DNA of 62,155 nt, filler included, from Hausera hauseri (taxonomy: Eukaryota): the NCBI GenBank assembly GCA_046269625.1. It is 12 parts of 12 records of this genome, joined end to end, with 100 filler letters (N's around TTAATTAATTAA, not from the genome) between each part and the next. Parts side by side here need not be neighbours in the genome. Positions count along the whole stretch, not along the records: positions 32,077 to 37,294 come from JBJURY010305166.1; 11 more parts are not named here. One strand, given 5' to 3'. Within the stretch, counting starts at the first letter, position 1. Every line of letters starts with the position of its first letter. Positions 1 to 57,183 of the stretch are shown here, in pieces. The notes under the pieces were generated by a model, which saw only the letters and a program-made list of their open reading frames with translations, did not search any database and was not told the DNA's origin. Both the position numbers and the translations under genes were made by a program.

Positions 1-3
1 ACG

Positions 4-14968: not shown

Positions 14969-15504
14969 NNNNNNNNNNNNNNNNNNNNNNNNNNNNNNNN
15001 NNNNNNNNNNNNTTAATTAATTAANNNNNNNNNNNNNNNNNNNNNNNNNNNNNNNNNNNNNNNNNNNNATCGTTAAAAAGATATTCAATTTTTGAAAATA
15101 CAATTATTTGTGACAGTGACTTTTCTTACCGCAATCGTGTTTTTTTGGATTTAACAACTAAATTGGTGTCAGATATCAAAAAACAGGTACGATTTAAACC
15201 AAACAACCGTTGTTGTACACTTCGAATATAGGACGTATTCTATATTTAATGTTGAGGTTTGTATACAGATTTGTATTATATGGAACTTATAAAAATTGTT
15301 TTAAAAAATTCTTTAAATATTGTCATTCAAATGTTGGACTCAGTTTTCATCTCTACCTTGGCCCGAATCTCTTGCTCATTGTCAGTGCCGTATTCAATGG
15401 TCATAATGAAGAATCAATTATTTATATGCGCTCAGTTATGCGTTATTTGAATTTATCCTTTTGTTTAGTGTTACGGGCAATTTCTTGTAAACGTATACTA
15501 AACT

Positions 15505-16007: not shown

Positions 16008-17376
16008 TGGCAGTTGAATTTTACATCAAATTATAGTTCGAATGACTATAAAAAACACAAATTACTTAACTAATAGTTTGCCACCATTGCATGAATCGGT
16101 TTCACAAATTTTTAATTGTAACGGACCCATCGAGTCGGATTCTATTGAATATGATACCTATGGAGGTAACATACCCACTCAACATATGTTAGATAAAAAT
16201 GCTGGGAAAATCGTTTCCAATAGCTTTGATTCCAGTTTCAATTCCAAAGAGGAAAAATATCAAAATTTCGTTGTGACAACAACAACATCCAGTAGAGTCA
16301 CTCCAAGGAGGTTGATATCATTTAAACACCATCAGAATATAGAGTTCCGATGATGAAATATGGTCACGTAATACTACAGTTCTAACATCTTCCATTCATG
16401 TAGAACGACCAAAATCTACGCGGAATAATTTTACATCGGATAGTTCCAAATTGAATTCCAATGCTCCTGAATTTAAACCAAAAAACACAGTTATGTTACC
16501 AGAGAATATTAAAAAGTTTCGCAGTAATGATGATGAACCAATGAAAGAAATTGAAAATCGATTTTCGAAGTTGAATATCAAATCTAATGAGTGTATGAAA
16601 AACGAAGAAAACTGTCCGAGAGTCAGTAATCCCAATAACGACATTATCAGCTTTAGCCAACAATCCATTCAATACTCTTCATGAATATGCTCAACAGAAA
16701 GGAATGGAATTATCCATCAGAATGACGGAGATGGGAGGACCTTCTCATAAGCCAAGGATATCTATGGCTGTTGTTTTAAATAACAGACAATTCGGTACGG
16801 TTACGTCTTCAAATAAAAAGGATGGCAAGCGGAAGGCCGCTGATATTGCTATAAGAACACTGATTTCTGAAGGGAAATTTACTAAATCAGTCAAGAAAGG
16901 TGATCCACCACCTTATGACTTATACGGTATTACGGTCACAATCATCTATGGTGTCTAGTTATAACAAAATTGTCAATCTTGTTTATGAAAAGTTTTCGCA
17001 TTTGATGAACGAGCTATCTAGAGAAAAAGATATGAGCCTTTCCGGACGAAAAGTAATTTCGGCAATTATAATGGAAAGCAAAGATGATTATAAAGTTGTT
17101 ACATTAGCAACTGGAAATATGTGTATAACAGGAGATAAAATTAGTTTACAAGGCAAAGTTATTAATGATTCCCATGTCGAAGTGGTAGCTCGTAGAGCAT
17201 TGATGTTATTCTTTTACAAGCAGTCATTTGAATACATTTCCAATTCATTTAAATCCCTCGATATTTTTGAGTCAGCTGAAGAGACCTGTAGTTTCAGGGC
17301 CTTTGGAAAACTTAAAATTGAATCTCACGTAAAATTCCATTTATATATATCAACAGCACTATGCGCTGATGGTGCT
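16008..17376 (+). pseudogene. ADAR: ADAR fragment (linker, one dsRBD, N-terminal half of the deaminase domain)
   Basis: dsRBD LHEYAQ..GGPSHKPR..NKKDGKRKAADIAIRTL; deaminase RKVISAII..LATGNMC..VINDSHVEVVARRAL (HAE-like), FHLYISTALCADG (STAPCGDG-like). Confidence 0.9.
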
Positions 17377-18016
17377 TCACAAATACTAACGGGATTAATC
17401 AATACTTTATCGGAAGCCCGGTTAAACTTAGTAATTTATTATTTACGAATGAATGACGTTACGCAAGCATACGAATTAATAAAAGACGTCGACTCAACAA
17501 CACCACAGGAACATAGTTTGAAAGGCGTCGTTAATGCTGTTATCGGGCCAGAACACAGATCTCGAAAAAATCTCAAATTAGCCCCACAATATTTCCAATT
17601 AATTGGCGGATCGGCGAGTGAATGCGATACAATTCCCGGACGACAGTACATGGCATCGCGTTTTTTTCTGTTGAAACGATTCGCGAACGTTTTGGTTTAT
17701 CTTAACTCAATCAAAATCTATTTCTACAAGGGTGATACGTTCAATTACAATCATGCACAGGCTAAAGCCGCCGTTGGTACGTGTAAAGAAGCCGAAGAAG
17801 TTTTCCTGTTAATTCAAGATTAAAAAATCAAAAACGATTACGTCTACCTAAGTTGGTTAGCCAAATGTTACATAATGAACAGGAAATTCCGAGATGCATG
17901 GGAACTGTATTTGAAAATGGAGACGTCCGCTGAATTTTTTAGTCTGTTGCAATTGTCTGCCAACAACTTACAAAATGGGCGAATTCTATTTTTCAGCGAA
18001 AGCATTCGATGTTTTC
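17368..18016 (+). pseudogene. TTC26: IFT56/TTC26 fragment, 3' part
   Basis: EARLNLVIYYL..TTPQE..KGVVNA..FQLIGGSASECDTIPGRQ..YVYLSWLAKCYIMN..AWELYLKMETS..KMGEFYFSAKAFDV; one stop and one frameshift. Confidence 0.95.
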
Positions 18017-18649
18017 GATGTGTTCAAACAACAGCTTGAGGTTAAAAAACTCTCCAGGAAACGTCAAGCTGAAATACTATCGTCTGTGATCCATTCAAAA
18101 AAATTAAATTCGGCTTGGCTTGATAGTCCAATTTGGGATATACCAAATTTTTCTGAAGAGGAAAATCAAACGCATGTTGTGGTGGTTTTTATCAAATTGC
18201 TTCAAGAACAGAGAGATAAACTTACAGATATTGTTATTAGTTTTCGTAATATTGTTGCCGAAGACAAGAATCATTTGATTGCGCGAAATATTATCAGAAC
18301 ACCCAAGTTTTACTACGGTATTCGTGAGAAAAGACCGGTACAAAAGATGGCATTGATGCCAGAACCTCGCCACCTAATTATATACGAGGACAAAAAAACC
18401 TGTTAGTTTTCACGTTATTTTATTCAATCGACTTTACTTTGTCACCATGATACAGGATAGGGAACTTAATTTAAGACCTTTTATGTCAAATATGGGCATA
18501 TCCAGATTGTTGTTACCTGCCGACTCTACAAGGAACGAAAATGTTCATGGTTCGCAGAATTGTTTACCCTCACCAAGAGGTAACTTATATATCGGTACTC
18601 CATCTTTTATAAATGATTTAGTTGAGGGACCGAGCGTGCCCGCCCCCTT

Positions 18650-21600
18650 TGCGCCATGTCCCCTTTCTTTTCTCATCCTTTCTAATAATAAACACGTCCA
18701 CACATTAAGGTTTACAGACAAACAAACTACTCATATTCTTTATACTGAATTGTCCTCCTATTTCGGCTTTTCTGATTTTTACCTTATGCACAACGGTCTA
18801 ACTCTGCAACCTTACGACTCTTTCATCCTTTGCACCCGAGAAATATTTCATTACTCTCACTGTCCATTTTCGCACCCGTGGTGGATCAGACCTCGATCCT
18901 TCTACTGAACACTTAACAAAAACCAGGTCTGGTCGTCGCCCTCTCGACCCTACACCATCAACATCTCCAAACCTTCCGTGTAAAGACTTTTTCCTCGATA
19001 AAACGAACTCGAGCCGAACTTAGCTACAATTTTATCTTCAATGGCTCAAAGCCAATTACATTACAGATCCCTTTCTGCAGGCTAACAGTTTAGTGCTGTT
19101 ACTCCCAGCCAACATCAAACAGCAGATAAGTAGCTTGGCTGACATACTCTCCTCCTCAAGCCCGTATGATATGCTGTACGAATCGGTTCTACATATCACC
19201 GATCCTTCTATCGACAGCATAATCCAGAAGTACTTTAACGAACACGCCATTGGAAATAAAAAACCATCAGATTTCCTTAAAACGGCCATCTCACAACTAA
19301 GCTGTTTAGGCGTGACTCCGACGAACAATGCTGATCTTCTTCGTCGATATTTTCTCGCATCTCTGCCAACCTCCATCCGAGCGTTGCTTACTGTAGTAGA
19401 TGACTCTACTGCCCTCGAAAAGCTCGCCTTATTGGCAGACAAAAGCTTCGATATTCTGCAGTCCAATAACTCGCAGCCTGTAGCCGCAGCAACTGCTTAC
19501 ATACTGCCAGACAACACTTTATTTGCACAACAACTAAACATGATGCAGAAACAATTCGATATCCTACAACAAGCAATTTCTGCAATCACTGCCCAACTCA
19601 GCGACTTATCTGTGCCACGAGGAAGCGAAAATCGTATTTCCCGCGATCGCAGTTTTTTCAGGCACTCTTCTCGTCCTAAATCTAAAGAGGGTAAAATGGT
19701 GTGCTTCTATGACAAAAAATTCCGCAGAGATGCGAGGAAATGCCTTTTAGGCTGTCAATTCTACGATGCACGATATTCCGTAAACAATCCAATCTGATTC
19801 TATTACGCAAAGTACCAGTCCTAGGCTAGGTCATGCGTGCCAGAATGTAAACATTATAAAAGGAATTCTTCTCCAACTTCTTCGCCTCCGCGCACTCACC
19901 ATTCCTCCTCTTTTTACCATTAAGTCTCAAAAAACCAGTAATGCCACCATATGCCACGGCACATTTTGGTACAGACAATATAGTTCAAACTACTGGCCGT
20001 TTCAACACCGTTTCTGCAGTCTTTCTGTTGAAAGCTGATTTGTTATTTGGAGATACATCACAGATAGATTTCCTTATTGATTCAGGAGCTGCATTTTCAC
20101 TTCTTCCTTTGTCTTTCGCTTCTACATTTAACACAGTTCTGTCTCCTCCACTCTTCACTGTTGTGGTCAACCTTTGAACATTGTAGGTACCACAAAGCTG
20201 CCCTTCTCATTCTACAACTTACCAGGGAAAATTTCCTGGAATTTTCACATAGCCAACATCAGGTCGTCCATAATAGGCACCGATTTTTTGGCTGCATACG
20301 ATATGTTAGTCGACTGAAAGCATAAATGCCTTCTGCGCAGAGATTTCACTGCCAATTCTAACAAATACTCACCAAACGATCAGCCGAAAACTTTGTCTTC
20401 CTCAGATCGTTCAAATATCAATGTGACATCCTGTCCATCGGTTGACAACAACGCGTTCAACATTTCATCAATATTTTCAATCTCGTCAAGTGGGAACAAA
20501 TAAATCTTAAAACATTCGGCTGAACAAAATGTCGTTAATGAATCACCTAGTCTTTCTACATCGATTACAGCAACTGACTCTTATAATGATATGCCATCAT
20601 CATTCTCATCATTAGATTCTGACCTTAAATCCTACATTAAGACTTCTTGTTCCCGCACTCTTAAGAAGTACATTAATTTCAAACCGCATTCTACAACATA
20701 TCACCACATAGTCACCGAACACCAAAGACCTATTAGACAAAAGGTCAGACCACTGTCACCTCGCAGACGAAAAGCCGTTGAATCAGAGTTCAACGAACTC
20801 GAAAAAGCGGGCATTATTCGACGATCTAAATCACCATGGGCTTCGCCTTTGCATGTTGTGACGAAAAAAATGGCACATACAGACAATGCTGTGATTATCG
20901 GCAGTTAAATAATATAACAGTCATGGATGCTTATCCTTTACCGTTAATAAATGACATCCTGCATAGCCTCACCAACACGAACACGTACTCCACAATTGAC
21001 TTGCATAAGGCATATCATCAAATCCCCGTTGCACCTGATGATATTCCAAAAACTACTATCATTACTCCATTTGGCCTCTACGAATATATCTTTATGCCAT
21101 TTGGTTTGCATAGTGCCTCTCAAACTTTGCAACGGCACACTGATACTGTACTCTAAGGCCTAGATTTCGCTCATCCATATATTGATGACATACTAGTTGC
21201 CTCTACCTCTGTCAAACAACATCAAGAACACCTTCGTATCACTTTTTACCGATTACATCACAGCAATTTGCAAGTCAACTTCGCCAAGTGTAATTTCTTT
21301 CAAAAACGTGTAAATTTCCTAGGTCACGTCATCACTCGTGACGGCCACTCTACACAACCGGATCGACTACAACAATTAAAGAATATAACGCTACCAACAA
21401 CTACCACGGACATGAGAAGCTTTTTAGGCACACTCCACTTCATCCACAAATACGTGCCTCATTGCTCTGAACTCACGGCACCTTTTGCACATTTATTTTC
21501 AGGAAAAAGAGGCAGTTGATCCACTAAACTCCTGATCTGGTAACCAAGTTTGACCACTTGCGCGAAGGTATTAAAACCGTTGAATTACTGTCTTACATTA

Positions 21601-21967
21601 AACCCAAGGTAGATCTTATACTTGCAACCGATGCCTCAACCACAGCTACTGGTGCTGTACTACACCAGATCTTTAATGGTATCGACGAGCCATTAGAATT
21701 TTATTCTAGGAAACTAACACAACCTGAGAGCCGTTACTCCACATTTGATTGCGAGTTACTTGCCATAGTTCTGGCAGTAAAACACTTCAAACACTTACTT
21801 CTCTCTCGTCCATTCGTAATTCAAACTGACCACAAGCCTCCGCTTCACATCATGTCGTTAAAAGAGCCATCACCAAGGAAAGAGAGACATATGTAGTATG
21901 GCCATCAATGCGCAAAGATGTACAGGACTGGGTTAAAGAATGCATAGCCTGTCAAAAATACAAAATC
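18650..21967 (+). mobile_element. Ty3/Gypsy retrotransposon (CsRn1/Boudicca-like), copy 1: Ubl leader - gag - PR - RT - RH - partial IN; decayed
   Basis: Gag KPSDFL..FLASLP..LEKLALLADK with C-x2-D-x9-C-x3-C knuckle; FLIDSGA; SPWASPLH, DYRQLN, YIDD; TDAS..RYSTFD.ELLA..TDHKP; WPSMRKDV..CIACQ after a deletion. Confidence 0.93.
19093..19797 (+). CDS. gag: Gag core of Gypsy copy 1 (the true ORF begins upstream and is disrupted)
   Basis: ORF track; clear homology to 27525-28340. Confidence 0.85.
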   Translation: MLLLPANIKQQISSLADILSSSSPYDMLYESVLHITDPSIDSIIQKYFNEHAIGNKKPSDFLKTAISQLSCLGVTPTNNADLLRRYFLASLPTSIRALLTVVDDSTALEKLALLADKSFDILQSNNSQPVAAATAYILPDNTLFAQQLNMMQKQFDILQQAISAITAQLSDLSVPRGSENRISRDRSFFRHSSRPKSKEGKMVCFYDKKFRRDARKCLLGCQFYDARYSVNNPI

Positions 21968-32076: not shown

Positions 32077-33400
32077 GGGTGTAGCTGCCATTGGAATAGT
32101 ATTTTAGATCGGCAGCTTCTGCGCGGCATACTGGACATGTAGTTTTTCCATTCTCTAATGTCCATTTTTCTAAACAGAACCTACAATATTTGGGGCATTC
32201 GTTTTCCTCCTTTTCCCATTTTTTATCGTCTAAATCTACTCTCAGCATAATTTCTATGGGTTCTAGGATTAATCCATCTTCCTCTTGGTATAGGTAAGCT
32301 GCAATTCTTTTTTGTTTGGGATTTATCGAGCTCTTTTTCGGATCACATCCTACAGGTATTAAGGTCCAATCGCTGATAGTATCTCGATCTAAATCGGGAA
32401 CTTCACCAGTCGACTGGTATTTCTGGTATTGCTTCTTTAACATCGCCTTTACTGATTTGTCTACGGGCACCAAGAGTTTACCATTTTTTCTTGATTGAAA
32501 TATCGGGGCAACATATTTTCCTATCTTGGGATTCTCCCAGACGTAGGTATTTTCGTAAACTTGCCGTGCGGGCGTCGCTTTGACAAAGAACATTGCTTCT
32601 TTGATTTTCTGCTTACTATAGTATTCTGTAGCTATTAGCATTCGGGGATGATCTGCTGTGGTAGCGTAATGGACATTTTCCGTGGACGTCTTTTTCCGTA
32701 AGACGTTTATTTCGGTTATGTGTTCTTTTTTGTTGTCCGGTTTCTTCATTGGTTTATTGACGTATATTTGTGTGTCTGGTTTTGAGTTTTCTTCCGTTTG
32801 GTTTTCTCGCTTACGTGTCTGTATGGGTTCTGAACGTTTTCCGATTTTTGTTTTTCTTCTAATCTCCTATCTTCTTGCTTGCTTTTTTTCTTAAATAAAT
32901 AATCAAAGAAGGATGTCTTCCTTTTAGTCGTTTTGCCACTTTCGGTTTCTGGGTTCTTATTGTGTTTCAAATATCTCTGAGAAGTTTCAGGTATTCTAAA
33001 CGGATAATCCTGTGTAGCGTAGCTTGTACTGGGTCCTGCCTGGATTTGCCTTTGATTTTCTATCCTTTTGGTTCTTGATCCTTGTATGATTATTTGATAG
33101 TTCCATTCTGGAATAATCTCGACGCTTCTGGGTGGAGAATATGGGCAAAAATGTCTGCGATAACGTGTGTTTAAGTCTTGGATCCTTGGGAAATTTAGTA
33201 GGTTCTGTCCAGGGTTATTGGGAATCCATTCATGCTCCCATTTAAGCCCAGCATTTATATCCCTTAGGTATTGGGATCTTTGACTGGCGGTTAGTATTCT
33301 ACTGATTTTAATATTTCCTTCTGTCATGACCTCTATCCTTAGCGTAAACCGGCCTTCCGGGGTTAATAGAATATGGCCCTTTCTTTTTTTGTCTTTGATT
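32077..33400 (-). pseudogene. Accessory ORF ending in a C3HC4 RING finger (first half of the RING deleted in this copy)
   Basis: KYCRFCLEKWTLENGKTTCPVCR; the full RING is visible in the paralogue at ~40515-40655. Confidence 0.8.
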
Positions 33401-33409
33401 TGTATTTGT

Positions 33410-34407
33410 TTAAACTACGGTTGGGTGGTATTCCAATTCTCTTATTCCAGCTAAGTGTTCTAGCGGTATGTTTAATTTTCTTATTATTCTTTCTACCTGA
33501 TACCCCACTAAGACGTATCCGCAGAAACATTGTGCCACTTCTTGTTGTATCATTTTGAGATCCTTTCCTTGCTTCAATTGGTCTCTTTTAATTCCAGTGA
33601 CTTCTGCGTACGTTTCGAGTATTTTCTTCCTTGGAGTAATAATCTTTGAATAAATTTCGACTCCGTTCTCTTCCCGAATGGATATTTCGATTGGAATATA
33701 GTCCTCTTCTCCTTCGCCGTAATTTACTGCTACAACCCTAATGTTCCTGTCGTCCGCTACCAACCTGAACGAATATAAATGATTTTGGCGTTCAACTTCT
33801 GTAGGCGTTTGTCTAAATTTTATAGGGGATAGTGCGGTGAGTATTGTTTCTTCTTTGGTCGTTTCGATCATCATTTTGACCGGTAGGGTAGCTATATGAA
33901 ATTCTAGTTTGTAATCCTTGAAATTCCTGATATCGAATACGAACGTACTGAACCGACTCTGCCTTCCTCGGAAGGAATCCCATTTTTGTTCTTTCAGCCG
34001 ATAATATATTTCTCCGTCGGCTAAATGTACGTATATTCTTTGTTGCTCGCCCGATCAATATTGAGCGATCTGTTTAAAGGGATAGACCCTGGCGTCCTTA
34101 TCTTCCCTCCATGCATACAAATATACTGTCCTGGTTTCCTCGGTCATTCCTTTTAGGCCGTTTGGGATTTCGCTGACTTTACCATACTGGGCAAAATTTT
34201 TCCCTTATAATTCATTATTGATTTGTCTGTATATAGATTTGAATTTGGAATTCGCACAGTTACGTTTCTCTGTAGAAATTCGTCGATACTAAGTCGACTT
34301 GCAGCGTTCTCGGTATCGTTTTCAATGTCGACTCTAATTCGGCTCGCATTCTCTCCTGCGTCGATCCTAAGTCGGCTAGAATCCATTTGCGTCTGGTTAC
34401 TTACCAA
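33410..34407 (-). pseudogene. Accessory ORF: unknown N-terminal domain plus REX4/ISG20-like DEDDh exonuclease fold lacking catalytic acids
   Basis: VVAVNYG..ISIREENGVEIYSKIITP..YAEVTGIKRDQLKQGKDLKMIQQEVAQCFCGYVLVGY..IREL follows the REX4 pattern (IALDCE..VSIV..YV.P..VSGI..L..G..VQ.EV..ILVGH..IRDT). Confidence 0.75.
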
Positions 34408-34433
34408 TCTGAAGAAAAAGAGATAAAGGTTAA
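34399..34433 (-). promoter_or_regulatory. Splice acceptor, 4-nt exon and GTAAGT donor (copy A)
   Basis: Minus strand reads TTAAC-ctttatctctttttctt-CAG|ATTG|GTAAGT; the same layout is present in copy B. Confidence 0.65.
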
Positions 34434-34506
34434 TTCTAAAACAAAGGATGGCTTTAAACCAAAACCAATTCTTTGTTTTATGACAGAATAACCTGCTCTG
34501 TAATTG

Positions 34507-35004
34507 TCAGATTATTTTATCATACGGATCTACAGGGTTCTCCAGCTCCCTTAATTCCCACTCTGAATTTTCATGGCGCTTAAAATAACAGTTTTTGGTG
34601 ACTAATCGAAAAATCGCAATTAATATAATGAGAACAACCGTTGACAGCACCGTGATAAATACAATTTGTAGCGTAGATAATCCCATCGGCGCTTGTGTGG
34701 TGACTCGAGTGGTGATCTGCTCATCTATATCCTCGTATGCGTGGGATTCTGTCCGAATCTCATTTAAGGTTAGCAGTGTAATGGTCTGATTCTGTTTATT
34801 CCTTGCACATATTTGTACTATATATTCGGTTTGCGGTTTTAATAAATTGCACTCGGTTTGATAAGTATTGCTAAACAATGTCACCTCTTGATTATTATTC
34901 GTTGTCCGACAATTTATGTATATGTCGTAGTTTTGTTTCTCTTCCACGAAGAACACAATCTTAGATCGATATACCGAATATTTAATGGGAATGCTTTCTA
35001 GCAT
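34507..35004 (-). CDS. FN3-like domain, TM helix and short tail; in-frame continuation of the IN ORF
   Basis: CNLLKPQTEYIVQICA (L.P.T.Y.V FN3 signature) and TM LQIVFITVLSTVVLIILIAIF; separated from the upstream ORF by one in-frame TGA. Confidence 0.8.
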   Translation of the reverse strand: MLESIPIKYSVYRSKIVFFVEEKQNYDIYINCRTTNNNQEVTLFSNTYQTECNLLKPQTEYIVQICARNKQNQTITLLTLNEIRTESHAYEDIDEQITTRVTTQAPMGLSTLQIVFITVLSTVVLIILIAIFRLVTKNCYFKRHENSEWELRELENPVDPYDKII

Positions 35005-37294
35005 TCAGTTCGTAGTGATAATCGTAGTGCTGCGGGTTGTACTCGGCGTTGTGGATGGTTTTCCTGTAGTGGTCGGTTGTAGGAGCTCCCATACTCTGTT
35101 CTTTGGGTGATATCCTCTTAGGAAAACACTTCGTTCACCCGGATAGGTATCGTACAAGTCAAATCGTAGTTCGTACTTTTGTCCTACTTGTACTATGCAG
35201 CAGACTGTGGGACGTCGCTTTGCCAACGAACAATATGTTGGTCTAGGAATAAAGTTGTTAAATGGCGTAAAATGGACTGAGATTTCCTTGTCTTCTGGTA
35301 TTCCAAATTTAGTCTCGATCCGAATGCATTGGTTTCTCAAATCCTTGTGAATTCCAATAATATTATCATCTAAGAGTCTGTTAATCGGATCAGTGCTTTG
35401 AATTATTTCGTCCGTCTTTTCCTGATTGGTGTCCTTTTGTTGTGGCATTTGTATTGTGAGCTCTGAGGCTATGTCGGCTTGAGTTCCAAACTTATAGGAA
35501 TAGAATAGCTGAAAGCTATATCTATAGACTTTCCCGAATTCTAGGTTACAGCATCTCCTGTGGTGTCCGTATGGGAAATCGCATACACTCATTTCATCTC
35601 CAGTGGTTATAAATGTTATCTGAAATCCTATGTGTCTCTGAATAGGATGGTCTGATTCGAACCATGCACATGGCTTTCTCCAATCCATATCCCGTATTCT
35701 GAGTGTCTGTAAATTCCGGATATCCCTTTGTTTGGCGCTTGTTTTCACTGTAGGTATATACGAAACAATTAATGATAAGGCTAAGACTATTTGTACATAA
35801 GATATCGGTCTAGTAACTATCGACGAAGTTTTTACTTCTCGCTGGCGTAAATTGTAACGTTTATTGGGTCGTATTTCCGTCTTGACGACCCTCTGTACTG
35901 ATACTACTTCTTCTTTTCCATTCTTATTGATATACACTGTGGTCGGCGTCACTCGGATGACTTCATACGGTCCTCTACCCGTACGAGTTAATTTCAGCGA
36001 GGTACCTTTTTTGGCTACTGGATAATGTACATAAACCCAATTTCCTTGCTCTATATTATGCGGTTTCGCTTTCTTATCATATTGTTTCTTGAATTGCTCT
36101 TGATATTCTTGAGATAATTCCTTGGCGATTCCCCAACACCTTTTCAATCGCGTTTGTAACACCTCTGCAAAATTTTGTTCTAAATCTTCCGGATTAACTG
36201 TGTATGGTGTCATTCCTAAGTCCGTAGGCAACACGGCTTCACGTCCATACATCATAAAGAATGGTGTAAATCCTGTTGCTGGATGTGGCGTGGTATTAAT
36301 TGCAAATTGTGTTCCTTCTAAAAATTCGTCCAAATCCTTTTGGTCCTTAGCCACTACTGTTGACAATATACGCATGACGGTAGCGTTCATTCTTTCGATT
36401 ATTCCATTACATTGGGGATGATATGCGGTAGTCGTTAATCGCTCGATTTCGAATATCTTAGTGATTTTCTCAAATAATTCACTGGTAAAATTCCTTCCGC
36501 TATCCGTTAATATTTGGTCAGGTGGTCCGTAACGGCAAATAATTCTTCTTACTACAGCTTCTGCCAAGGTTTCCGCTTTTTGATCGACTAATGCTATCAA
36601 CTCGACAAAATGAGTTAATCGATCGATGCACGTTAATATATATTTATTGTTCTTGTGAATTGTAGGAAGAGGTCCTACGATATCCGTCGACATGGCTTGC
36701 ATGGGCCTATCGGGGACATTGATTGGTTTTAATTCGGCCATGTAGTTTTTTGTTTTCTTTTGTTTAGTCGCACACACCTCACAGGCGCTTACCCAATTTT
36801 TTACATCGATATAGATACTAGGCCAAAAATATTTGTTTATTATTCTTTCTAACGTTCTCTTCCAGGACATGTGTCCGGCTAAATACGAGTCATGTTCTGA
36901 CATCAGTACTTCGGTTCGTAAACCTTTTGGGATAACTATCAATTTTCTTCCTTTTCGCTCGTAGTATAAGATGTTTTCTTTGTTTCCATCATTTATGACG
37001 CAATATTTATGTCCGTATCTGCGTAGATGTTTCTTTAACTGTCGCGCTTTTGGTATGATGTCCCTTGTAGCAAATTCTATAATCTGCTGAATAACTTTGT
37101 CGTTTCTTTGTTCCGTTGAAATCTTAATTGTTCTATCTATCGTTAACGCACGTTGGCGGTCTATTATTTCCTCCAGTTGGCCTTTCTTCATTACGGTGAT
37201 TGCACTTGTTTTAGTCCTTAATCTCGATAATGCGTCAGCATCGACATGTTTATTTCCCGGCTTATACTGAAATTCAATATTATATCTGGAAATT
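35005..37294 (-). CDS. pol: Pol C-terminus: integrase fused to a signal peptide, a Cys-containing ectodomain and a Thr-rich stalk
   Basis: YKPGNKHVDADALSRL; HDSYLAGH..CEVC; TDIVGPLP..IDRLTHF..TDSG..YHPQCNGIIER; GPY; then YVQIVLALSLIVSYIPTVKT, two CC-containing repeats and TTTGKPSTTPSTT. Confidence 0.9.
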
Positions 37295-37394: not shown

Positions 37395-37470
37395 GCAGCC
37401 TACCTTATTAAATTTCGTGTACGGTACCACAAACAGTTTAACTCTTCATTTCCGTCGAATCCAACAAAAA
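37395..37470 (+). pseudogene. C-terminus of Polinton minor capsid (penton) protein
   Basis: FVYGTTNSLTLHFRR resembles the typical penton ending. Confidence 0.6.
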
Positions 37471-37474
37471 CAAC

Positions 37475-37801
37475 ATGATTGATTCTGAAATCGTATCCAT
37501 TTACAGTAAACCCCAGCAGGGCAGTAAACATCCGTATTTCGTTGGTAAACAGTATGGCTCTGGGTGGTTGCATACATTGGCACGTTTAGCATTTACGGTG
37601 TTGAAACGTATCGGAGCCGTGGCAGCAAAAATAGCATAGGACGTACTATATGAAAACAAATCGATTTTACCATCGTTGAAGGAACATGCATTGACCGAAA
37701 TAAAAAGCGCTGCACCGGGAGTCGTTGAATCAGTTAAAAAACAATTCTCTGGCAGTGGCTTGATGAGAAACGCCGTAGATCAACTAGCTTTTCAACCATA
37801 A
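37475..37801 (+). pseudogene. Polinton small core protein with putative adenain cleavage sites
   Basis: QQGS, QYGSG followed by amphipathic WLHTLARLAFTVLKRIG, and FSGSG; one internal stop. Confidence 0.6.
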
Positions 37802-37850
37802 ACAAACGTCGTTGTCGTACGATTTTCGATTGACTGATTGACAGAGACAA

Positions 37851-39086
37851 ATGACATCTGCAAAATCTGAATTATGTATATTTGACAAAGCGGCGCCACA
37901 AGTTGTTATTGACAATGCGGCATTTGAAAAAATCTGCCCCGTTGATTCGGTTTCAACGGACGATAACATTGACATTCAATGCAACATTATGGAATCGGAC
38001 AATGAATAACTGGATTTGAACAATACGCTACTCTATGTAAAAGTCATTGTTAAAAAGGATTCGTCAACGGTTCTCGCTGCAACAGGCACTGTCACACCGG
38101 CCAATTACCTTTTCCTCACATTGTTATAGGAGACTTCACTGACTCTAAACTGCGTCAAAATTGAAGGCAACACCAGTCTATACAGTATCAAAGCACTTAT
38201 TGAAACTGCTCTGAATTAAAGTGGAGACACAAAAACGACTAATTTGACGAAAACCATCGGATACAATGCCACAGCGGCAAACCGTTAGGCATGGGCAGCA
38301 AAATCAAAAGCACTTACAATGTGTGGACCGCTGTACTTTGAATTTTTCGATCAGCCGAAATACCTACTTCCCGGTGTTAAAGCCATGATTCGGTTGAAAC
38401 GCAGCGACAATGTCTTTTGTTTGAAAACCGCCGTTGCACAGCTTAAACCCATACTGAAAATTATTGAGGCACGATTATACGTACGTCGTGTAAAGGTAGA
38501 ACCATCTGTGCTCATGGGCCATCAATTGGGCTTGGAAACACAAAATGCCTGTAACCCGATACAACGCACAGAACTCGTCTTTTACACCACACCGAAAGGT
38601 TCAACAACGTTTTACAAAGATGCACTTTTTGGCGACATGCGATTGCCGAAATTTGTGCTTGTTACATTTCAAACGACTGTTCGACAAACGGGCAGTTATA
38701 CCGCCAATTCGGAAACGTTTACTCATAGCAATGTGAATTACATCAGTTTGGGTCGGAATGCGGATTTCGTTGAGAAGTACAAATAAGATTTCGAGTCTAA
38801 TGATTATTTTTGAACATATATGCAATCTGTAGTGCACAACATGGGTTTGCTCAACAAAAGCATCACCAATGGCATATCGATGGATTTGTTCAAGTCCGCC
38901 TATCTATTTTTCACCTTCGTGCTGGCTCCGGATTACGATGTTGAACAGACTCAACTACCTCAGAAGGGAAACCTACCACTGGAGGTTCACTTTGCCAAAG
39001 CGTTGGAGCAATCTACCGTGATGTACGTTTACGGTCTATTTGATGCTGAGGTTGAAATAACGAAAAAGGGAACCGTCATTGTTTAA
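37851..39086 (+). pseudogene. Polinton major capsid protein (double jelly-roll)
   Basis: KSELCIFD..PQ..I; LDLNNTLLYVKV; ANYL; GPLYFEFFDQPKYLLPGV..IRLKR..FCL; ARLYVRRV; KGNL.LEVHF.KAL; several stops. Confidence 0.88.
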
Positions 39087-39169
39087 ATAAAATCCGGTGT
39101 GTCTCACTCTTTCTTCTTCGTCGTCGTACTATGAAGTAACTTATTACTACTATTACTATTATACTTAAT

Positions 39170-39531
39170 TCACATTTAGCTCCACCGAGCTCATTCGCCA
39201 CGGAAAACTGCTCTTGGGCGTGAAATTTCGTTGCGTGTTTCCACTAGACCGTGTGCCGCGTGATTTACGAAAAGCCGGTGGCTTTATCGTCAATACACAC
39301 ACTTCATCGTTGCCGGACGAACATTGGATTGCTGTGTACGTTCACCATCCAACCAACGTTTTCAGAGTATTCGACACGCTCGAATTTTGCTATCCGTCAT
39401 CGTTATTTTCTCAAATTGAACGGCAAAAATCATACCGTGTTGAATATAATCGGGTTCATTATCAACATCCAATGACTATACTGTGTGGACATTACTGCTT
39501 ATTGTGGCTTACATTACAATCACTTTTCTGA
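39170..39531 (+). pseudogene. Adenain-like cysteine protease
   Basis: F..VFPLD, FIVNTH..PDEHWIAV, VFD, YQHP..LCGHYC (His-Asp-Gln-Cys catalytic residues). Confidence 0.9.
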
Positions 39532-40278: not shown

Positions 40279-41729
40279 TTATATCTCTCCTCCCTGAGCG
40301 GCATCCTCGAAAGAGCCTACTGCGTCAGAATAGGTGACGCCTAACGGCCTGGGTTGTCTCAATTGATTCTTTCTTTCTTGTAGATCCGTTTGGGAATCTA
40401 GTTGGCCTTGACTGGTTAATGGACTCGTCTCCAGATTGTAACTATGGTAGGGCTTGATTCGAACAACTCGGGTGTAACTTCCGTCGGAGTAGTATTTTAA
40501 TTCAGTGGCCTCTGCCCGACACACTGGAAATGTTGTTTTTCCATTGTCCAGTGTCCACTTTTCCAGACAATCTCGACAGTATTTGTGGCGGCAGATCTTG
40601 TTATCCAAAACCACGTAACCTTGTCTCAGGTTGCCATCGCATACAGAGCATTCATTATCTTCTTTGTCCCATTCGTCTCTATCTAAGTAAACATGGATCG
40701 TTAATTCAATGGGTTCGAACACAAGATCATCTTTGTCTTGATACAGGTATCCATGAATTACTTTCTGCTTAGGGTTAATTGAACTTTTTCGTGGGTCACA
40801 GTTTACTTCTATTAGTGTCCAGTCTGCCATAAGGTCTCGATCTAAATTGGGAATTCTTCCTTCTATTCGATATCTTCGATAATGTTTCTTTAGCAATATC
40901 CGGATTTGCTTATCTACCGTAACTATTACTTTTCCTCTCCTCTTAGAGCGGAAGACTGATGTGAGATAATTTCTTAACTTAGGGTTTTCCTTAAACATAT
41001 GTATTCTCGAAGACTTCTCTTCCTGGGGCAACTTTAATACAAAACATGGCTTCTTTGATCATTTTTTGCTACAGTATTCTGTAGTTGTCAGCATTCTGGA
41101 TAAGTCCTGAGTCGTTTTATAATGGACATCTTCCTTGATATTCTTTCCTACAAGGACACTTACTTCGGCTATCATGGATTTCCTATTTTTCTTCTCTACA
41201 GATTTTACTTTCTGGGAGGTATTTGGTTTGTCTTGTGGGTTTTCATCTTGTGGCTTCTCGTCTTCTCCTTTCTTCTTAAATAGATATTCATAAATAGACA
41301 GCGTTTCCTTGGACTGGAGCTTTTCTTCTAATTTTGTTTCTTTATTATTGTTTTTGCCCTCGATTCCCTTTTGTTTTCTGCCAGAAAATTTGGGGTTCTA
41401 TTAAGCATTTTGTCTTCCTTTTTGATCGCTTGTAATACCGTTTTATTTTTCTCTTGTTCTTCCATAGGTTCTTGTACTGTGATCGTAAGACTATGGCTGC
41501 CCATCGACTGGCCACTTCTGATCGGAGAATATTGTTTGACATTCCTTTTGTATTTGGTATCTATTAATTCGGGCTTCAAGAAGCTGTGCAAATTGTATAT
41601 CGGATTTTTAGGGGCCAATTCATGTTTCCACTTTAATGGTTTATAAATTTCCTGCAGATATTTGGAGCGTTGGCTAGCCGTTAGAAGTCTCGGAATTATA
41701 TTCGAGTCATTGCTTATTGCTTCAATCAT
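40279..41729 (-). pseudogene. Accessory ORF with C-terminal C3HC4 RING finger
   Basis: CSVC-x13-CRHKYCRDC-x11-FPVCR (copy A has CPVCR); frameshifted. Confidence 0.85.
40284..40295 (-). promoter_or_regulatory. Polypurine tract marking the 3' end of the internal region of copy B
   Basis: TTCGAGGATGCCGCTC-AGGGAGGAGAGA-TATAAAT on the minus strand, at the end of the RING ORF. Confidence 0.6.
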
Positions 41730-41733
41730 TAAC

Positions 41734-42674
41734 TTAAAGAAGGCTTCTGGAGCGGTCGGTCGATTTCTTTTTTTGTTCGGTTCCTTCCATTCGTTCTTGG
41801 ATTATTGGATGAGTGGCCATTTCCCTAAGTCCGGCAATATTTGAATCGGATATTTCTAGTAACTCGACGGATCGTTGCACGTTATATCCGGCCAACATAC
41901 AACCATGCAGACAATGATCCAACTCTGAGCGAATTTGTCTACTGTTTTTTCCTCTTATGAGCTGCTCTCTTCTTAAACCGGTTACTTCTGCATATGATTC
42001 TTGGACATGTTTCCGGGGGCTTATGATTGTAGCGTATATTTCGATCCCATCCCTTTCTCTAATAGATACTTCGAAGGGTATTCCATATCTATCATCTCCT
42101 CTGCCACAATTTATCGCGATGATTCTTATATTGCGACCATCTTGGAATAGTTTATATGACTGACGATGTTCATCCTCTTCTACCTCAGTTGAAATTTGTT
42201 CAAATTCTAGGGCTGGCAAGTGTAGATTACAATCTTCTCTGTAGGTCACTTCGAACATAAGTTTGACAGGAAGGGCTGCTACTCTAAATTCTCGGCCGTA
42301 TTTGACACGTTCCAAACCTTGTCTGTTTATTTTAAATGTACTGAACCGGTATTGATGTCCTTCGTTGGAGTTCCAAGGTTGGTTTTTTATTCTATAATAT
42401 AGTTCTCCGTCGGCTAAGTGGATGTATATATCTTGAGTTTTAGCTGGTCGGTTTTGGATTAATTCCTTTAAAGAGTATCCTTTAGCTTGATTATCTTCGC
42501 GCATTGCGTAAAGGTAGACTGTACGATTCTCCTCTATAATGCCTTTTAGATCATTGCGGATTTCGCTGATTTTTAAAATTTCGATATAGGTTTTTGCTTG
42601 TAAGGCTTCGGTTATCCGTCTGTAGATAGATTTCGATTTTGGAATAAATACTGTCGGTTATCCATACTTACCAT
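41734..42674 (-). pseudogene. N-terminal domain plus inactive REX4/ISG20-like exonuclease (copy B)
   Basis: IIAINCG..VSIRERDGIEIYATIISP..YAEVTGLRREQLIRG..CLHGCMLAGYN..LREM. Confidence 0.75.
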
Positions 42675-42700
42675 TCTAAAAAATAGAAAATAAGGGTCAA
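42666..42700 (-). promoter_or_regulatory. Splice acceptor, 4-nt ATG exon and GTAAGT donor (copy B)
   Basis: Minus strand reads TTGAC-ccttattttctattttt-TAG|AATG|GTAAGT. Confidence 0.68.
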
Positions 42701-42772: not shown

Positions 42773-43660
42773 TCAGGTTATTCCATCATTGATTTTCCCC
42801 TGTGGCACCATGACCCTTAATTCCCTCTCAATATTTTTAGGACGCTTATTACAGCAGTTGTTGGTAATAAATCGTCAAAACGCAATAAAAATTATGAGTG
42901 CAAACGTTGACGTTCCATTAATCGATATTATTGTCAAGGTTGTCCATTTAGTTAGTTTTTGTGTTTTAGCGGCAGTCGTAATTTCATCTTCCATTTCCTA
43001 GTTAGTTAGTGGTTTCGTTAAACCAATCTTATTTAGAGTCCGTACCATAAACGTTTTACTTTGTTTATTCTCTGCACCTATTTGTATTATATAGTCTGTT
43101 TTGGGTTTTAAATAGGTACATTTGATTTGATGGCTACCCTTGGCCAGTATCACTTTCTGATTATTATGTTATTATTATAATGTTCGGCAGCTTATTTTTA
43201 CGTCGCATTTAAGTGTTTCTTCCACTACAAACGTTATCTCATATTGTTTTGTTCAATATTTTACAGGAATCATTTCTAGATCCTTCTGAGGTAACCCGGT
43301 TGTTCGGAGGATTCTGGTGGAAGTTGAAGTAATTGTATTCGTCTTCGCAGTCGTAACTCTGCTTGATACCATCTTAGGTGGAATTCTCCAAATTGGACTT
43401 CCCAATTAGTAACTTCCCAGGAAAATACTCGACTGGTTTGGTCGAACTTTATATAAGTCTAATCGATTTCTATATTCATATACCTGAGGCAACTTACAAC
43501 ACTTATTCGGTTTTTCGGCGTGGATCTGACAATACTGCTGATTATGAGCTTCCTTGTCCTTTTCCATGAATTGAACCGTGATTACTCTTCTTTTCATTAA
43601 CCGTCCTTTTGTGTTTATTTGGACACAGTTGTTCTTTGGGTCTTTCGTTATACTAGCCAT
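42773..43660 (-). pseudogene. Ectodomain - FN3 - TM membrane protein (copy B)
   Basis: NNCVQINTK..YC..KCC..YEYR; Thr-rich stalk; CTYLKPKTDYIIQIGAENK; hydrophobic segment followed by NCCNKR. Confidence 0.78.
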
Positions 43661-48612: not shown

Positions 48613-49532
48613 CCAGTAGTTCAGAGCAAAATGTTCGTGCTGTTCAGCGCATGGTGATAGATGATGCGCGGATCAAGGTCAATGCGATTGCAGAAACCCT
48701 TCACATCTCAACAGGTACAGTTCACTCCATCTTCCATGATCATCTACAGATGAGTAAGGTTTGTGCCTGATGGGTGCCAAAATCGCTTTAGGTGTTTGAC
48801 AAGCAGAGGCGATTGACAACTTGTCAGGAGCTTTTGCACCGCTATGAAGAAGATCCGGAGGAATTTGAGGCAAGGATTGTTACAGGTGATGAGACGTGGG
48901 TTTATGATTACCAGCCTGAATCAAAACAGCAAATCAAGGTGTGGATCAAGAAAGGAAATCTTCCACCGGTAAAGTTCAAGACCACCAAGTCAGCTGGAAA
49001 AACAATAGTCACAGTTTTCTGGGATTGTAAGGGTGTTGTGTTGGTGGACTTTTTGCCACGGGACAACAATGACAAGCCATTATTACTCTGGATTATTGGG
49101 GCGTTTGCGAGAGACTGTGAAGAAGGAGCGTCGTGGGAAAATAAGTCATGGTATTCTGCTCCAACATGATAATGCACCTCCTCACACCTACCATGTTTCA
49201 TCCGCTGCTATTCATAAATGCGGTTTTGAACTTTTGCCTCACCCACCCTATTCCGCAGACCTTGCCCCCAGTGACTACCATCTGTTTTCAAATCTCAAGA
49301 AAGCGCTGGGTGAAAACAGATTTTCAGATGATAATGAACTGAAAACCTTTGTTAATGGCTGGTTGCATGATCCGGCACAAAACTTTTATTTTATGGGGAT
49401 TCATGCACTTTACACATGATGGTATAAATGTATTGATGTAAGGAGTAGTTATCTAGAAAAACTATAAATAAATTATTTGTCTCATTTACTTGCTTCTGGT
49501 ATTTTGTCAAAAATTTTTGAACGCCCCTCGTA
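48613..49532 (+). mobile_element. mariner (DD34D) transposon remnant with 3' TIR and TA
   Basis: WVPK, IVTGDETWVY, TVFWD, QHDNAPPH, HPPYSADLAPSDYHLF; ends tttttgaacgcccctcg-TA; frameshift and stops. Confidence 0.95.
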
Positions 49533-53601: not shown

Positions 53602-55707
53602 CTACCCACCACGCGGCCTTTCTCGACCTGAATCAGGTGTCCTACTTCGTTTTCGAGTTGGAGACTCTCCAACAGGGACAGGTCCATCAATCTGTTCATA
53701 CACAACCGCAACATTCTTCTTACTGAATCCAATGCCAATAAGCAGAAACTTCTCGACTCCGCGGTTTTGCGCTGCAGCGACATACTTTTTCTCCTCAATT
53801 TGTGCCAAACCAGCTTCTGCCGCTTTTTCAAGCTCTCTCACCGACATCTCATCGTCTGCTAACTTAGTGCTGCGAACTTCCTGTAACTCAAATATGATAC
53901 AGCGCTTTTCCCTCTCGCATTCAATTGCTAGGTCATAAAACCCGTCTCCACTTACCTGATTTGATGTGACAGTATAGTTCTCATTTTTGTATAAATAGAG
54001 AACGAATCCGAGCATTAGCCCGTGGTAAAAGGCCTCACATTCACGACCAACATCGCGAGAACTGACAACTCGTTTAATTATTTTACGCAAACCTATTTTG
54101 AAATCACTCATCTTTCCTTCTATTAGATTGTTAATGAAGTCTCTCATCCATTGACCATCAGCAGCGTTAGAAAGCCAGCTCATGGTAATATCTTCAAATA
54201 TCGTTATAACCTCCGCATTCGGAATTGTCAACGAATAGTTCCACTTTTCTTTAATAAGCGTCCGTCCTTCAATCTTCAAATAGCCTGTCATGAGTAAAAG
54301 GACGAAGATCATGGTTGGAGAATTCTCTATGTTCTCAAAAGTAATATACTCATTAACCTCGATCGGTTCCAATTTGCCTTTCAACAGCTTTACCAAATCC
54401 GCCTTGAAATAATAACAGGATTCCTTTAACAGCTTTAGAATTACCTTGATGTCACCAGACTTTGCCCAATATGCATCTACAGACCTTCCATTGCAAAGCT
54501 TAGAAATACAGAAAGGACAATACAGTGTTCTCTCCCCGACAAGGTATCCATTATAACATGCCTTCGCAGCCCCCAACTGATTAAACGATCCATAGTGCTC
54601 CAGCATAGCCTTGGTCTCCTCCTCTGTGAATCCAAAATACGGAGCATATCTATCATGTAGCACAGTACGCAGCCTCATATTATTGAGGCCAGAAAAAATG
54701 CTGTCGTTAGCAATCGGCGCAATTCCCGTGAGGACCGCCTTCTCCAAGTAATCATTGCTCTTTAGTGCATGAAGTAACAGTCCATTCATAAAAATTGACA
54801 TGTCGTCATAATATCTCCCACTGTAGGCATTGTGGAATGGAGCGTCGTACTCGTCGATTAATAAGTACGGCTCTTTTCCATGGTAATCATACAAATACCG
54901 CACAAGATTCCCAATGGCGTTTCTCACGTCAATTTTGTCCGCCTCCTTATAAATGATCGCTTGGATCAGCTTCTTGTCCCATGGTTTTAACGTCTTACCA
55001 TCGAGCAAATAAGCATGTTCTTTGTATGAATCAGCGACGCACGTCTCGAGAGCCTTATAGGCGGTCTGATATGTTTCCCCATCGACACCCTTAAGCGAAA
55101 TAAAGATCACTTGGTACTGACCTTGGTGTTTTTTGCATATCTCATGATCTGCTGAAATTCTCAGCTTCTTAAACAGATTTTTCGTCTCTATACCATTCAC
55201 TGTCCTGGAAAGAAAACACCATAACATCCTCATGTTAAGGGTTTTCCCAAAACGCCTGGGACGAGTGATGACAACGACTTTGCCATCTAATATAACATCC
55301 CTGATGAACAAGCTCTTATCCACAAAGTATATCTTTTCCGTTATAAAGCTCATAAAGTCGTCATCGGCATCCTCTATCCCCCTTTCAGCACTTTCGACGA
55401 CTCCTGTGGAAGTCTCATTAGCATCACTGGAGATATTTTGCTCATTATTTCTACGATTCATAAACAGCGAAATAGGAGAGATAAGAAAAGAATATATCTT
55501 CCTCAGAGTGCTTCGTACGATTTCGGGGGAAGGATCAACCCTCACCGCGACACTTTGACTTCCCGCGGCAGAAGGAACAATAGTTTCTGTGCTATTTCTG
55601 CCCTCCATGACTAAAGGATCAAACCTCTCCGCGACACTTTGACTTCCCGCGGCGGACGGGTCAATAGCATTCCTGGACTTGTTTTGCTTCTTATTTCTAC
55701 GCGTCAT
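53602..55707 (-). CDS. Bacterial-type AAA-ATPase-like plus PD-(D/E)XK nuclease-fold protein, intact ORF
   Basis: YFVDKS, ITRPRRFGKTLNM (Walker A), LLIDEYDAP (Walker B), LTGI..SGLNN, FGFTEEE, YNGY, LLMTGYL, IPNAEV, EAFYHG, SNQVSGDGFYDLAI..IIFELQ, ALAQI-like GLAQIEEKKY. Confidence 0.92.
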   Translation of the reverse strand: MTRRNKKQNKSRNAIDPSAAGSQSVAERFDPLVMEGRNSTETIVPSAAGSQSVAVRVDPSPEIVRSTLRKIYSFLISPISLFMNRRNNEQNISSDANETSTGVVESAERGIEDADDDFMSFITEKIYFVDKSLFIRDVILDGKVVVITRPRRFGKTLNMRMLWCFLSRTVNGIETKNLFKKLRISADHEICKKHQGQYQVIFISLKGVDGETYQTAYKALETCVADSYKEHAYLLDGKTLKPWDKKLIQAIIYKEADKIDVRNAIGNLVRYLYDYHGKEPYLLIDEYDAPFHNAYSGRYYDDMSIFMNGLLLHALKSNDYLEKAVLTGIAPIANDSIFSGLNNMRLRTVLHDRYAPYFGFTEEETKAMLEHYGSFNQLGAAKACYNGYLVGERTLYCPFCISKLCNGRSVDAYWAKSGDIKVILKLLKESCYYFKADLVKLLKGKLEPIEVNEYITFENIENSPTMIFVLLLMTGYLKIEGRTLIKEKWNYSLTIPNAEVITIFEDITMSWLSNAADGQWMRDFINNLIEGKMSDFKIGLRKIIKRVVSSRDVGRECEAFYHGLMLGFVLYLYKNENYTVTSNQVSGDGFYDLAIECEREKRCIIFELQEVRSTKLADDEMSVRELEKAAEAGLAQIEEKKYVAAAQNRGVEKFLLIGIGFSKKNVAVVYEQIDGPVPVGESPTRKRSRTPDSGRERPRGG

Positions 55708-57183
55708 AACTAATGAAATAAGAAAGAAATAGAAAAAAATGAGAAAACAATGAAAACGAAAGGCAAACAAACTAGCAGTAACACAAATAACAAACAGTGT
55801 CAGAATGAAAAGTAGATAAAACAGCTGCTAAAATACTCCGTGTACCTTCAACTGCCCTCGCTGTTCCCGTGAGTAACTCTGTAACCCATCACTCTCAACA
55901 CACACTAAGACGCACCACAGTTATTTGATGTTACTAGCCTCTGACCTTTGACATGCCGTGTTATTCACAACAACAAAACGCACTTCCATCATCCCTAATT
56001 GATTGATATTCAATTGAAGCGCGTTATCAGCGCCTTTCCAAAGACTACCCACAAACCCCATGCGGCAGAAAACAAACAAACAGACAAAACGAGTAACTTG
56101 CCGCAAAATCTACCAGGCCACACACAACCAACAACTACGACGAATCCTCCTTGATCCACATATACACCACACACACGCACATACACCGTGGTGTATAAAG
56201 TTGTCCAGCTATTCACTGCATGGATCACATTTTGCACATGTCGTATCAGCACACTATATAAATATTGGAAGGATTTGTCATACTGTCATTGCAGTAGGGA
56301 TATAGTTTTTTGATGGGATGAAAAAATGATCAGCGAAACCGCCCATTAATAGTCGTCACATATATCGCTATTGATTCATCCTTCACAGCGCTAGTTATGT
56401 GTCTATTTATTGCTCTAATGAGAAATCAATTGATCATAACATACACCCTAATTGATCACGAACAATAACCATTTTTTAACCAAAAATTTTTACAGTGAAA
56501 AAAAGGCTGCACACGATGCAATTCGATGATGCGACCATACGCACTCGCAGCAACAACTCGCCTCACGTTTTTGTCAAAACACACCATACATCCAGAAACA
56601 GATCCGTACACATACACATCAGGGCGACAACCGCGTGTGTAACACAAGTTGAAAAGAGAGTGAGAGGCGGAGCAACAGAGAGAGTGGGGAGACAAATGAA
56701 CAAGAAGCTGACCTAGTAAAGCAACAATAGAAAAAAAGAAGCGCACAACAAAGAGCTAGAAACCTACTGATCTGCATGCGTGTTTGGAAGATTCGCAGAC
56801 AGCCCAATATCACAACCAATGATTGCTCCAGCCGTGTTAATAAAATCCCCCTCACTGTTCACAGTGCAAAGCCCCGCAAGAGTAAAAAGGACGGTGGTAT
56901 CCTGCAAGCGGAAGACAATCATGCTATTCAACCAGAAAGAGGTAAAATAAAATAAGGACGACTTATCTTACATTTAATGTGGGCATCCTAAGTATATAAT
57001 AGACGTATGTACAGACATCCCTGACATGGGAGAGATATCAGCGATAAAATCAATATATAATAATAACGTAAAAGTAATTTGANNNNNNNNNNNNNNNNNN
57101 NNNNNNNNNNNNNNNNNNNNNNNNNNTTAATTAATTAANNNNNNNNNNNNNNNNNNNNNNNNNNNNNNNNNNNNNNNNNNNNC

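Follow-up and report, generated by a model that had tools for sequence, protein, structure and literature searches.

Can the position behind pol in a long terminal repeat (LTR) retroelement be occupied by a surface protein other than a fusogen, and can such a protein be made as part of Pol itself? The question is raised by a retroelement copy, here copy A, in a stretch of 62,155 nt (the window) that consists of 12 separate contigs of the Hausera hauseri assembly GCA_046269625.1 with N44-TTAATTAATTAA-N44 linkers between them. Copy A lies on the minus strand of the contig at positions 32077-37294 (JBJURY010305166.1), and a paralogue, copy B, lies on the following contig of the window; because the contigs are separate and joined by N's, the two copies are not genomic neighbours. 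By eye, other open reading frames of the window indicate an animal host. A sequence-only reading had proposed that the integrase of copy A continues in frame into a signal peptide and an ectodomain of the fibronectin type III (FN3) kind. We tentatively favour the following answer as a whole: the element would make a Pol-fused type I protein with three FN3-like domains, which would be freed by signal peptidase and serve as a surface attachment factor and not as a fusogen. Taken separately, the parts of this answer differ in strength: support is good for the anatomy of the protein, its processing as described is likely, and attachment is its probable role.

The frame from integrase to membrane protein

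The contig of copy A begins at the end of RNase H, and the frame leaves the contig on its 5' side; gag, protease and reverse transcriptase (RT) are not seen on it. The features on which the argument depends are given below, where P0004 and likewise P0005, P0009 and P0018 in the text are labels of database proteins.

35008..37293, minus strand: open frame of 762 codons, covering the RNase H end, integrase, linker, signal-like stretch, domains 1 and 2, and stalk
35881..36897, minus strand: integrase with H2C2 zinc finger, D-D-E residues and GPY/F module, from Pfam and motif positions
35812..35880, minus strand: linker from integrase to signal-like stretch, with no stop and no Met, its variants nearly all synonymous
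35734..35811, minus strand: predicted internal signal peptide with a hydrophobic core, conserved in P0004
35443..35691, minus strand: domain 1, predicted FN3-like beta-sandwich with 4 Cys, the least well tested of the three domains
35116..35379, minus strand: domain 2, predicted FN3-like beta-sandwich with 4 Cys, an internal repeat of domain 1
35008..35076, minus strand: Ser/Thr-rich stalk, 14 of 23 residues being Ser or Thr
35005..35007, minus strand: in-frame TGA of copy A, read as decay, absent from three relatives
34762..34995, minus strand: domain 3, FN3 fold with two conserved Cys, from VIA-align and a weak Pfam fn3 match (E 0.013, below the cut-off)
34609..34665, minus strand: predicted transmembrane (TM) helix, 19-mer hydrophobicity 3.18
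34507..34608, minus strand: predicted cytosolic tail of ~33 residues with a juxtamembrane Cys and a terminal YxxI at 34524-34513; stop codon at 34509-34507
42776..43657, minus strand, other contig: copy B, a decayed paralogue, from domain 2 to the tail

The minus-strand frame of copy A runs from 37293 to 35008 without a stop. Its integrase, for which both Pfam matches are above the cut-off (Integrase_H2C2, E 3.6e-18; rve, E 1.1e-13), follows RNase H and combines the H2C2 finger, the DDE core and the GPY/F module, as in Ty3/gypsy elements; the GPY motif is at 35973-35959 (-). The 114 nearest integrase proteins carry rve/H2C2, most of them together with RT and RNase H, and those that are named include a 412-like Pol. 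Judged by these integrase features, copy A is part of a Ty3/gypsy-type LTR retroelement (Metaviridae).

Past the integrase the frame stays open for another 291 codons, a length with a chance of ~9e-9 at the local base composition. It passes through a linker of 28 codons (aa 472-499) into the signal-like stretch, which has its hydrophobic core at 35796-35764 (Kyte-Doolittle 11-mer 2.77) and, by eye, small residues at positions -3 and -1 of a plausible cut site. The passage from the integrase GPY motif into a hydrophobic signal-like stretch, as proposed by the sequence-only reading, thus holds at its coordinates and within one open frame.

Related copies permit a test of this junction. Only one public DNA run with the stretch was found, X1, which is possibly the same sample as the window; it has 11,215 contigs on the 5.2-kb element at ≥80% likeness, and the element therefore belongs to a large and diverse repeat family. 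Among the sequencing runs searched no RNA run with the stretch was listed, and searches of viral contigs and metagenome contigs yielded no locus-level relatives. The junction test comprised X1 contigs over 171 bases across the junction (n = 555), including only contigs ≥80% alike and variants with a share of ≥15%. The 17 junction variants comprise 14 synonymous changes and 3 changes of V>I; stops, indels and new Met codons are absent. Given the mutation classes and the local bases, 5.4 synonymous variants are expected (P = 2e-5), and in the other two minus frames the same 17 variants include 4 and 1 synonymous changes. Within the linker alone 12 of the 14 listed variants are synonymous, and seven of the eight longest contigs among those listed cross it without a gap, with 16-26 differing letters. 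The linker evolves under coding constraint in the fusion frame in the tested subfamily, and the in-frame fusion is supported by this selection on the linker of related copies. Copy A and the copies at least 80% alike thus have the layout of a Pol-Env polyprotein, with no stop between integrase and membrane protein.

Ectodomain, tail and interrupting TGA

For the region behind the signal-like stretch, two mutually similar Cys repeats, a Thr-rich stalk and a TM helix had been read from the sequence, and we located each of these in copy A. Domains 1 and 2 resemble one another with pairwise z values of 4.5-10.3 (500 shuffles); sequence similarity of either to domain 3 is mostly not significant. 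The Cys count is even in six of seven domain copies, which fits disulfides. A single C-terminal TM helix followed by a short cytosolic tail is predicted, and the YxxI of the tail is kept in three of four tails, being missing in the decayed copy B. YxxPhi motifs drive endocytic sorting, including in the tails of retroviral Env proteins.

Three relatives cover the TGA that interrupts copy A. P0004 (479 aa) was the single homolog among 2,276 candidates, with 34% identity, 93% cover and E 6.5e-78, and is uninterrupted from signal to tail. P0005 was found by a profile search of 1.84 billion representatives (E 1.2e-42) and spans the TGA site. Copy B, the third relative, has the same residue as copy A in 105 of 266 aligned codons, with differences of 107/96/158 by codon position and 7 stops in 294 compared codons; because its contig starts inside repeat 2, it is silent on the integrase fusion.

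We confirmed the positions of the sole break, a TGA at 35007-35005 with an ATG directly after it at 35004-35002, as well as the earlier claim that copy B has no stop there. At the matching site none of the three relatives has a stop and none has a Met, so that the check proposed earlier, the status of the TGA in other copies, resolves as decay: since P0004, P0005 and copy B read through this position, the TGA of copy A is most likely a later lesion rather than a readthrough signal. Could the TGA-ATG instead be programmed, by readthrough or by stop and restart, so that a form with two domains is secreted and an anchored domain is made apart from it? The location of the stop at a domain boundary, with an ATG immediately after it, speaks for this, but a fixed stop, which programmed readthrough or reinitiation would call for, was not found in the relatives, the 165-aa remainder after the TGA lacks an N-terminal signal, and the private changes of copy A are mostly non-synonymous (5 of the 21 near-fixed listed differences within the frame are synonymous). 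We consider a programmed TGA scarcely credible. The TGA codon is not among the X1 variant rows listed (40 of 1,504).

The fold was approached through P0004, for which an AlphaFold2 model was made with 8 alignment rows; a single-sequence fold reached a predicted local distance difference test score (pLDDT) of 46 and was excluded from the structure search. The model of P0004 shows three domains of beta structure together with a disordered stalk and a TM helix. Its best Foldseek matches in the PDB are three-FN3 fragments over ~345 columns, namely fibronectin FN10-12 (E 7e-10), contactin-1 and gp130. VIA-align against 48,161 chains places domain 3 on single FN3 domains (Z 8.8-9.2, root-mean-square deviation 2.3-2.6 Å, 75-80 residues) and superposes 213 residues, in the model range 77-401, on fibronectin 6xay. 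Tandem-FN3 alignments include domains 1 and 2, domain 2 in many rows and domain 1 in few. Among the viral structures of BFVD, the named matches are mostly FN3/Ig-like proteins, and a fibronectin-like protein is the third HMMER match among the 1.84 billion representatives (E 9.5e-4). A sequence search of the PDB with the family alignment gave no match. In the ESM Atlas all matches of P0004 are below 0.9 and mostly FN3 clusters, which is a lead only, and domains 1 and 2 of copy A gave no usable match. On the model, domain 3 is an FN3 fold, and the two Cys repeats are probably FN3-like as well. The FN3 signature noticed in the sequence is thereby recovered by structure search, and the reading is widened, as a probable one, to domains 1 and 2.

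A fusogen was looked for in several ways. Neither a class I F nor a class III gB fold is among the matches listed from the PDB or BFVD; the nearest exception to FN3/Ig-like proteins in BFVD is a bunyavirus-type envelopment polyprotein at rank 35 with a TM-score of 0.14. No Pfam fusogen family matches the membrane protein, although one such family, PF24664, does match another element of the window. There is no RxxR common to the ectodomains of copy A and P0004, and we saw no internal hydrophobic stretch besides the signal and the TM helix that could be a fusion peptide. P0004 alone has a predicted helix at 42-74, which is mostly an insertion relative to copy A. The earlier proposal that the protein is not a fusogen fits the all-beta three-domain model, which has no fusogen match.

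Processing and role in the light of known elements

How might such a protein be released and used? The hydrophobic stretch would target nascent Pol to the endoplasmic reticulum (ER), where host signal peptidase would cut behind it. Its core of 9-12 residues scores +4.1 as a 19-residue anchor, compared with -5.1 for the TM helix, on the Hessa scale; too short for a stable anchor, the core may act as an internal signal. Signal peptidase frees ectodomains in the polyproteins of flaviviruses and hepatitis C virus. Either the protease of the element or signal peptide peptidase could then trim away the stub left on the integrase. The released protein might then cycle between plasma membrane and endosomes through its YxxI motif, and particles or particle-bearing vesicles could stick to neighbouring or germline cells through it. 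Fusion would have to come by another route, for example through a fusogen encoded by a different element of that genome; an element with a gB/chuvirus-type fusion protein lies on the first contig of the window. A more far-reaching version holds that in a lineage of animal Ty3/gypsy elements a host-derived, receptor-like three-FN3 protein replaced the fusogen and was hard-wired to Pol, with germline targeting achieved by adhesion and fusion borrowed from helper elements; we regard this version as possible, if unlikely.

If the signal were cut late or never, it could tether Pol and assembling particles at the ER or endosomes, and the ectodomain would mainly serve sorting. The signal core has the highest summed contig depth at the junction, which fits strong conservation, depth being a poor measure of it. 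The core is, however, a poor 19-residue anchor by the scores given above, and three conserved Cys-bearing domains and a stalk exceed what a tether needs. We judge a tether improbable.

Several points weigh against the answer favoured here. The evidence base is one DNA run, possibly of the window's own sample, and two ENA proteins, possibly of the same organism. The signal-peptide call was made from hydrophobicity and the -3/-1 pattern only. Over the signal core the summed contig depth is ~72,000, and in the linker it is about 40-fold lower, at ~1,600, so that many signal-bearing contigs were not traced upstream, and the junction test reaches only contigs ≥80% alike, with divergent subfamilies outside its scope. 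Among 4,170 longer database candidates there was no integrase-ectodomain fusion protein, which is weak evidence. P0004, the only whole relative, is called with its own Met two residues before the conserved RPISY, and its subfamily may thus carry a separate gene. Confidence in the P0004 model is middling (pLDDT 59.6, predicted TM-score 0.28), the whole-chain TM-scores of the Foldseek matches are 0.13-0.18, probably because the arrangement between domains is unresolved in the model, and the FN3 assignment of domain 1, with its few rows, is barely tested.

Some of these points favour a membrane protein made from its own subgenomic message or start, like errantivirus Env, with the open junction either incidental or confined to one subfamily: the Met of P0004 stands just before a textbook-looking signal peptide, no fused protein was found in databases, and divergent subfamilies were not followed upstream of the signal. 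Against separate expression, the tested subfamily has no stop and no in-frame Met from the GPY module to domain 1 (in copy A none between residues 381 and 535), nor a strong splice acceptor for the membrane gene; the linker is under purifying selection at the P value given above; and every ribosome translating Pol would produce the fusion. Separate expression is in our view distinctly improbable.

The acceptor is bound up with what lies downstream of the membrane gene.

34409..34436, minus strand: top-ranked splice-acceptor-like site just downstream of the membrane gene, with a homologous site in copy B at 42676
32077..34400, minus strand: broken accessory gene or genes, DnaQ-like (pseudo)exonuclease (DnaQ 8h18, E 0.005) and C-terminal RING

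In a scan for pyrimidine-AG sites the homologous site ranks first of 167 in copy A and first of 100 in copy B, with pyrimidines at 16 of 17 and 15 of 17 positions, and the AG sites upstream of the signal core score ≤10/17. With the strongest acceptor after the membrane gene, the element seems to splice for the accessory gene and not for the membrane protein. The accessory gene of copy B, at 40279-42676, lies behind the same kind of acceptor (RING, E 6e-6). By eye, the first acidic motif appears to be replaced in the DnaQ-like region of both accessory genes. A purine-rich tract at 40279-40295 ends the last open reading frame (ORF) of copy B and is followed by TA rather than by the TG with which an LTR usually starts.

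The accessory gene enters into another account of the role, in which the Pol-fused and signal-released protein would be aimed at the host: as a receptor mimic or decoy, it would soak up ligand, blunt defence signals or block the entry of rival elements. FN3 domains of cell-surface and cytokine receptors (gp130, IFNAR2, IL-22R1 and ROS1) are among the best fold matches, a pseudo-exonuclease/RING gene suggests host manipulation, and the polyprotein of the planarian element Burro carries apoptosis and ubiquitin domains (PMC6431247, in the part available to us). Fold matches, however, do not tell receptors and adhesion proteins apart, rows that differ by no more than 1 Z unit being tied; the env position and co-translation with Pol link the protein to particle production; and the splice acceptor was seen for the accessory gene and none for the membrane gene. 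We think a decoy unlikely, though conceivable enough to be kept in mind beside the attachment role.

The layout of a Pol-Env polyprotein is already known, and what is new is that a receptor-like FN3 cargo stands where a fusogen would be. The comparisons that follow refer, except for the profile of the International Committee on Taxonomy of Viruses (ICTV), to the available parts of the sources cited. Atlas virus encodes a single Gag-Pol-Env polyprotein, and Atlas virus and nematode belpaoviruses resemble copy A in having a type I membrane glycoprotein after Pol in one polyprotein, with release by a host protease implied; by contrast, Atlas virus belongs to the Belpaoviridae and has a phlebovirus-like GN/GC class II fusogen, whereas copy A joins a Ty3/gypsy integrase to three FN3-like domains (PMC9094657). 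According to the ICTV profile, the function of the env-like genes of Belpaoviridae is unknown (PMC8742986). Env-carrying errantiviruses likewise have a protein with a signal peptide and a C-terminal TM helix in the position after pol, but a survey of metazoan errantiviruses describes Env of F-type or gB-type only (PMC13524379), and the protein of copy A matches neither. The words 'fibronectin' and 'fused' do not occur in the main text of that survey, its supplements being outside the scope of the count.

The same survey reports a gag-env-pol order with gB-type Env in flatworms and an env-before-pol order in flatworms, nematodes and bryozoans (PMC13524379). Another LTR element of the window, at 1-5309, carries a gB/chuvirus-type fusion protein (PF24664, E 6e-25) upstream of protease-like, RNase H and integrase pieces; with PF24664 before the pol pieces, it fits this env-before-pol order.

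In Burro/GYPSM1, a giant planarian gypsy element, an Env-like region is also in the polyprotein frame and RING and host-like domains were captured, but its env, a homologue of fusogens, is placed between gag and pol (PMC6431247). In other gypsy-like elements env is expressed from an ORF of its own, and the word 'fibronectin' does not occur in the available text of the same source (PMC6431247). The ORF3 of the bdelloid elements Juno and Vesta resembles copy A in that cargo other than a fusogen, such as small TM proteins or DEDD exonucleases, occupies the env slot; it differs in being either a separate ORF of 210-230 aa that is spliced or an enzyme, and no cargo described in the available text is FN3-like or fused to integrase (PMC5408684). 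The sORF2 of 412/Stalker2 (MDG1 group) is a further parallel, in which an Env-less LTR element reaches the germline by means of a non-canonical membrane protein, but a small accessory ORF encodes sORF2, which is short and fusogen-like, whereas here a three-domain ectodomain ends Pol (10.1101/2025.03.14.642691). In the literature searched we found no retrotransposon with FN3 cargo or with a signal-released FN3 protein; the search did not extend to subscription journals, Repbase reports or supplements, which may describe one.

At least one of the 114 nearest integrase proteins, P0018 (an ENA protein of 1,030 aa), continues by eye without a frame break from its Ty3/gypsy integrase into a signal-like stretch, followed by an Env-like region and a TM helix; the search for integrase relatives was limited to proteins of ≤1,334 aa, and this count is a lower bound. 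A basic cleavage site and a hydrophobic peptide are seen by eye between its signal-like stretch and its TM helix. P0018 probably represents a Pol-Env fusion not reported so far, with an Env that by eye looks F-like; Pfam and the 60 listed PDB rows match its integrase part alone. P0018 and P0004 have no significant similarity. We found no support for a replacement of a fusogen by the FN3 gene within the lineage of P0018: in a FastTree tree of 111 integrases, which leaves out 4 of the 114 matches because of their short length, the partner of copy A is P0009 (support 0.87), which has no membrane extension, and P0018 is 46th of 110 by integrase distance from copy A.

Should the attachment role hold, the env slot would have a third, non-fusogenic kind of surface protein, and a captured fold of host adhesion or receptor type would have become a fixed part of Pol that selection maintains in a high-copy family. 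A dedicated attachment protein without a fusion protein of its own would amount to a two-component entry system split between elements. The case bears on the cell-to-cell movement of Env-less LTR elements, and it is a simple one in which to study how signal peptidase processes the distal end of a Pol polyprotein. Surveys detect env-bearing retrotransposons through homology to known fusogens, and cargo of this kind is therefore invisible to them.

Other sequences of the window

Adjoining the 3' end of copy B there are broken ORFs at 37395-39531 with a weak match to an adenain-type protease (Peptidase_C5, E 0.087), which are possibly part of a Polinton-like element. Motifs like those of family B DNA polymerases were seen by eye in a 452-codon ORF at 13654-15012, possibly Polinton-like. 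At 16599-18406, just upstream of a gag-pol relic at 19024-21896, intron-free ADAR-like pieces (dsRNA-binding and deaminase) switch to unrelated host-like sequence, which by eye looks like host-gene capture. A 741-codon open ORF at 53602-55827, on a contig that is not gene-dense, appears by eye to encode a bacterial-type AAA-ATPase with a nuclease tail. Finally, an exact direct repeat of 77 nt lies at a contig end (48297-48512), and the following contig carries what by eye is a relic of a mariner-like transposase at 48792-49419.

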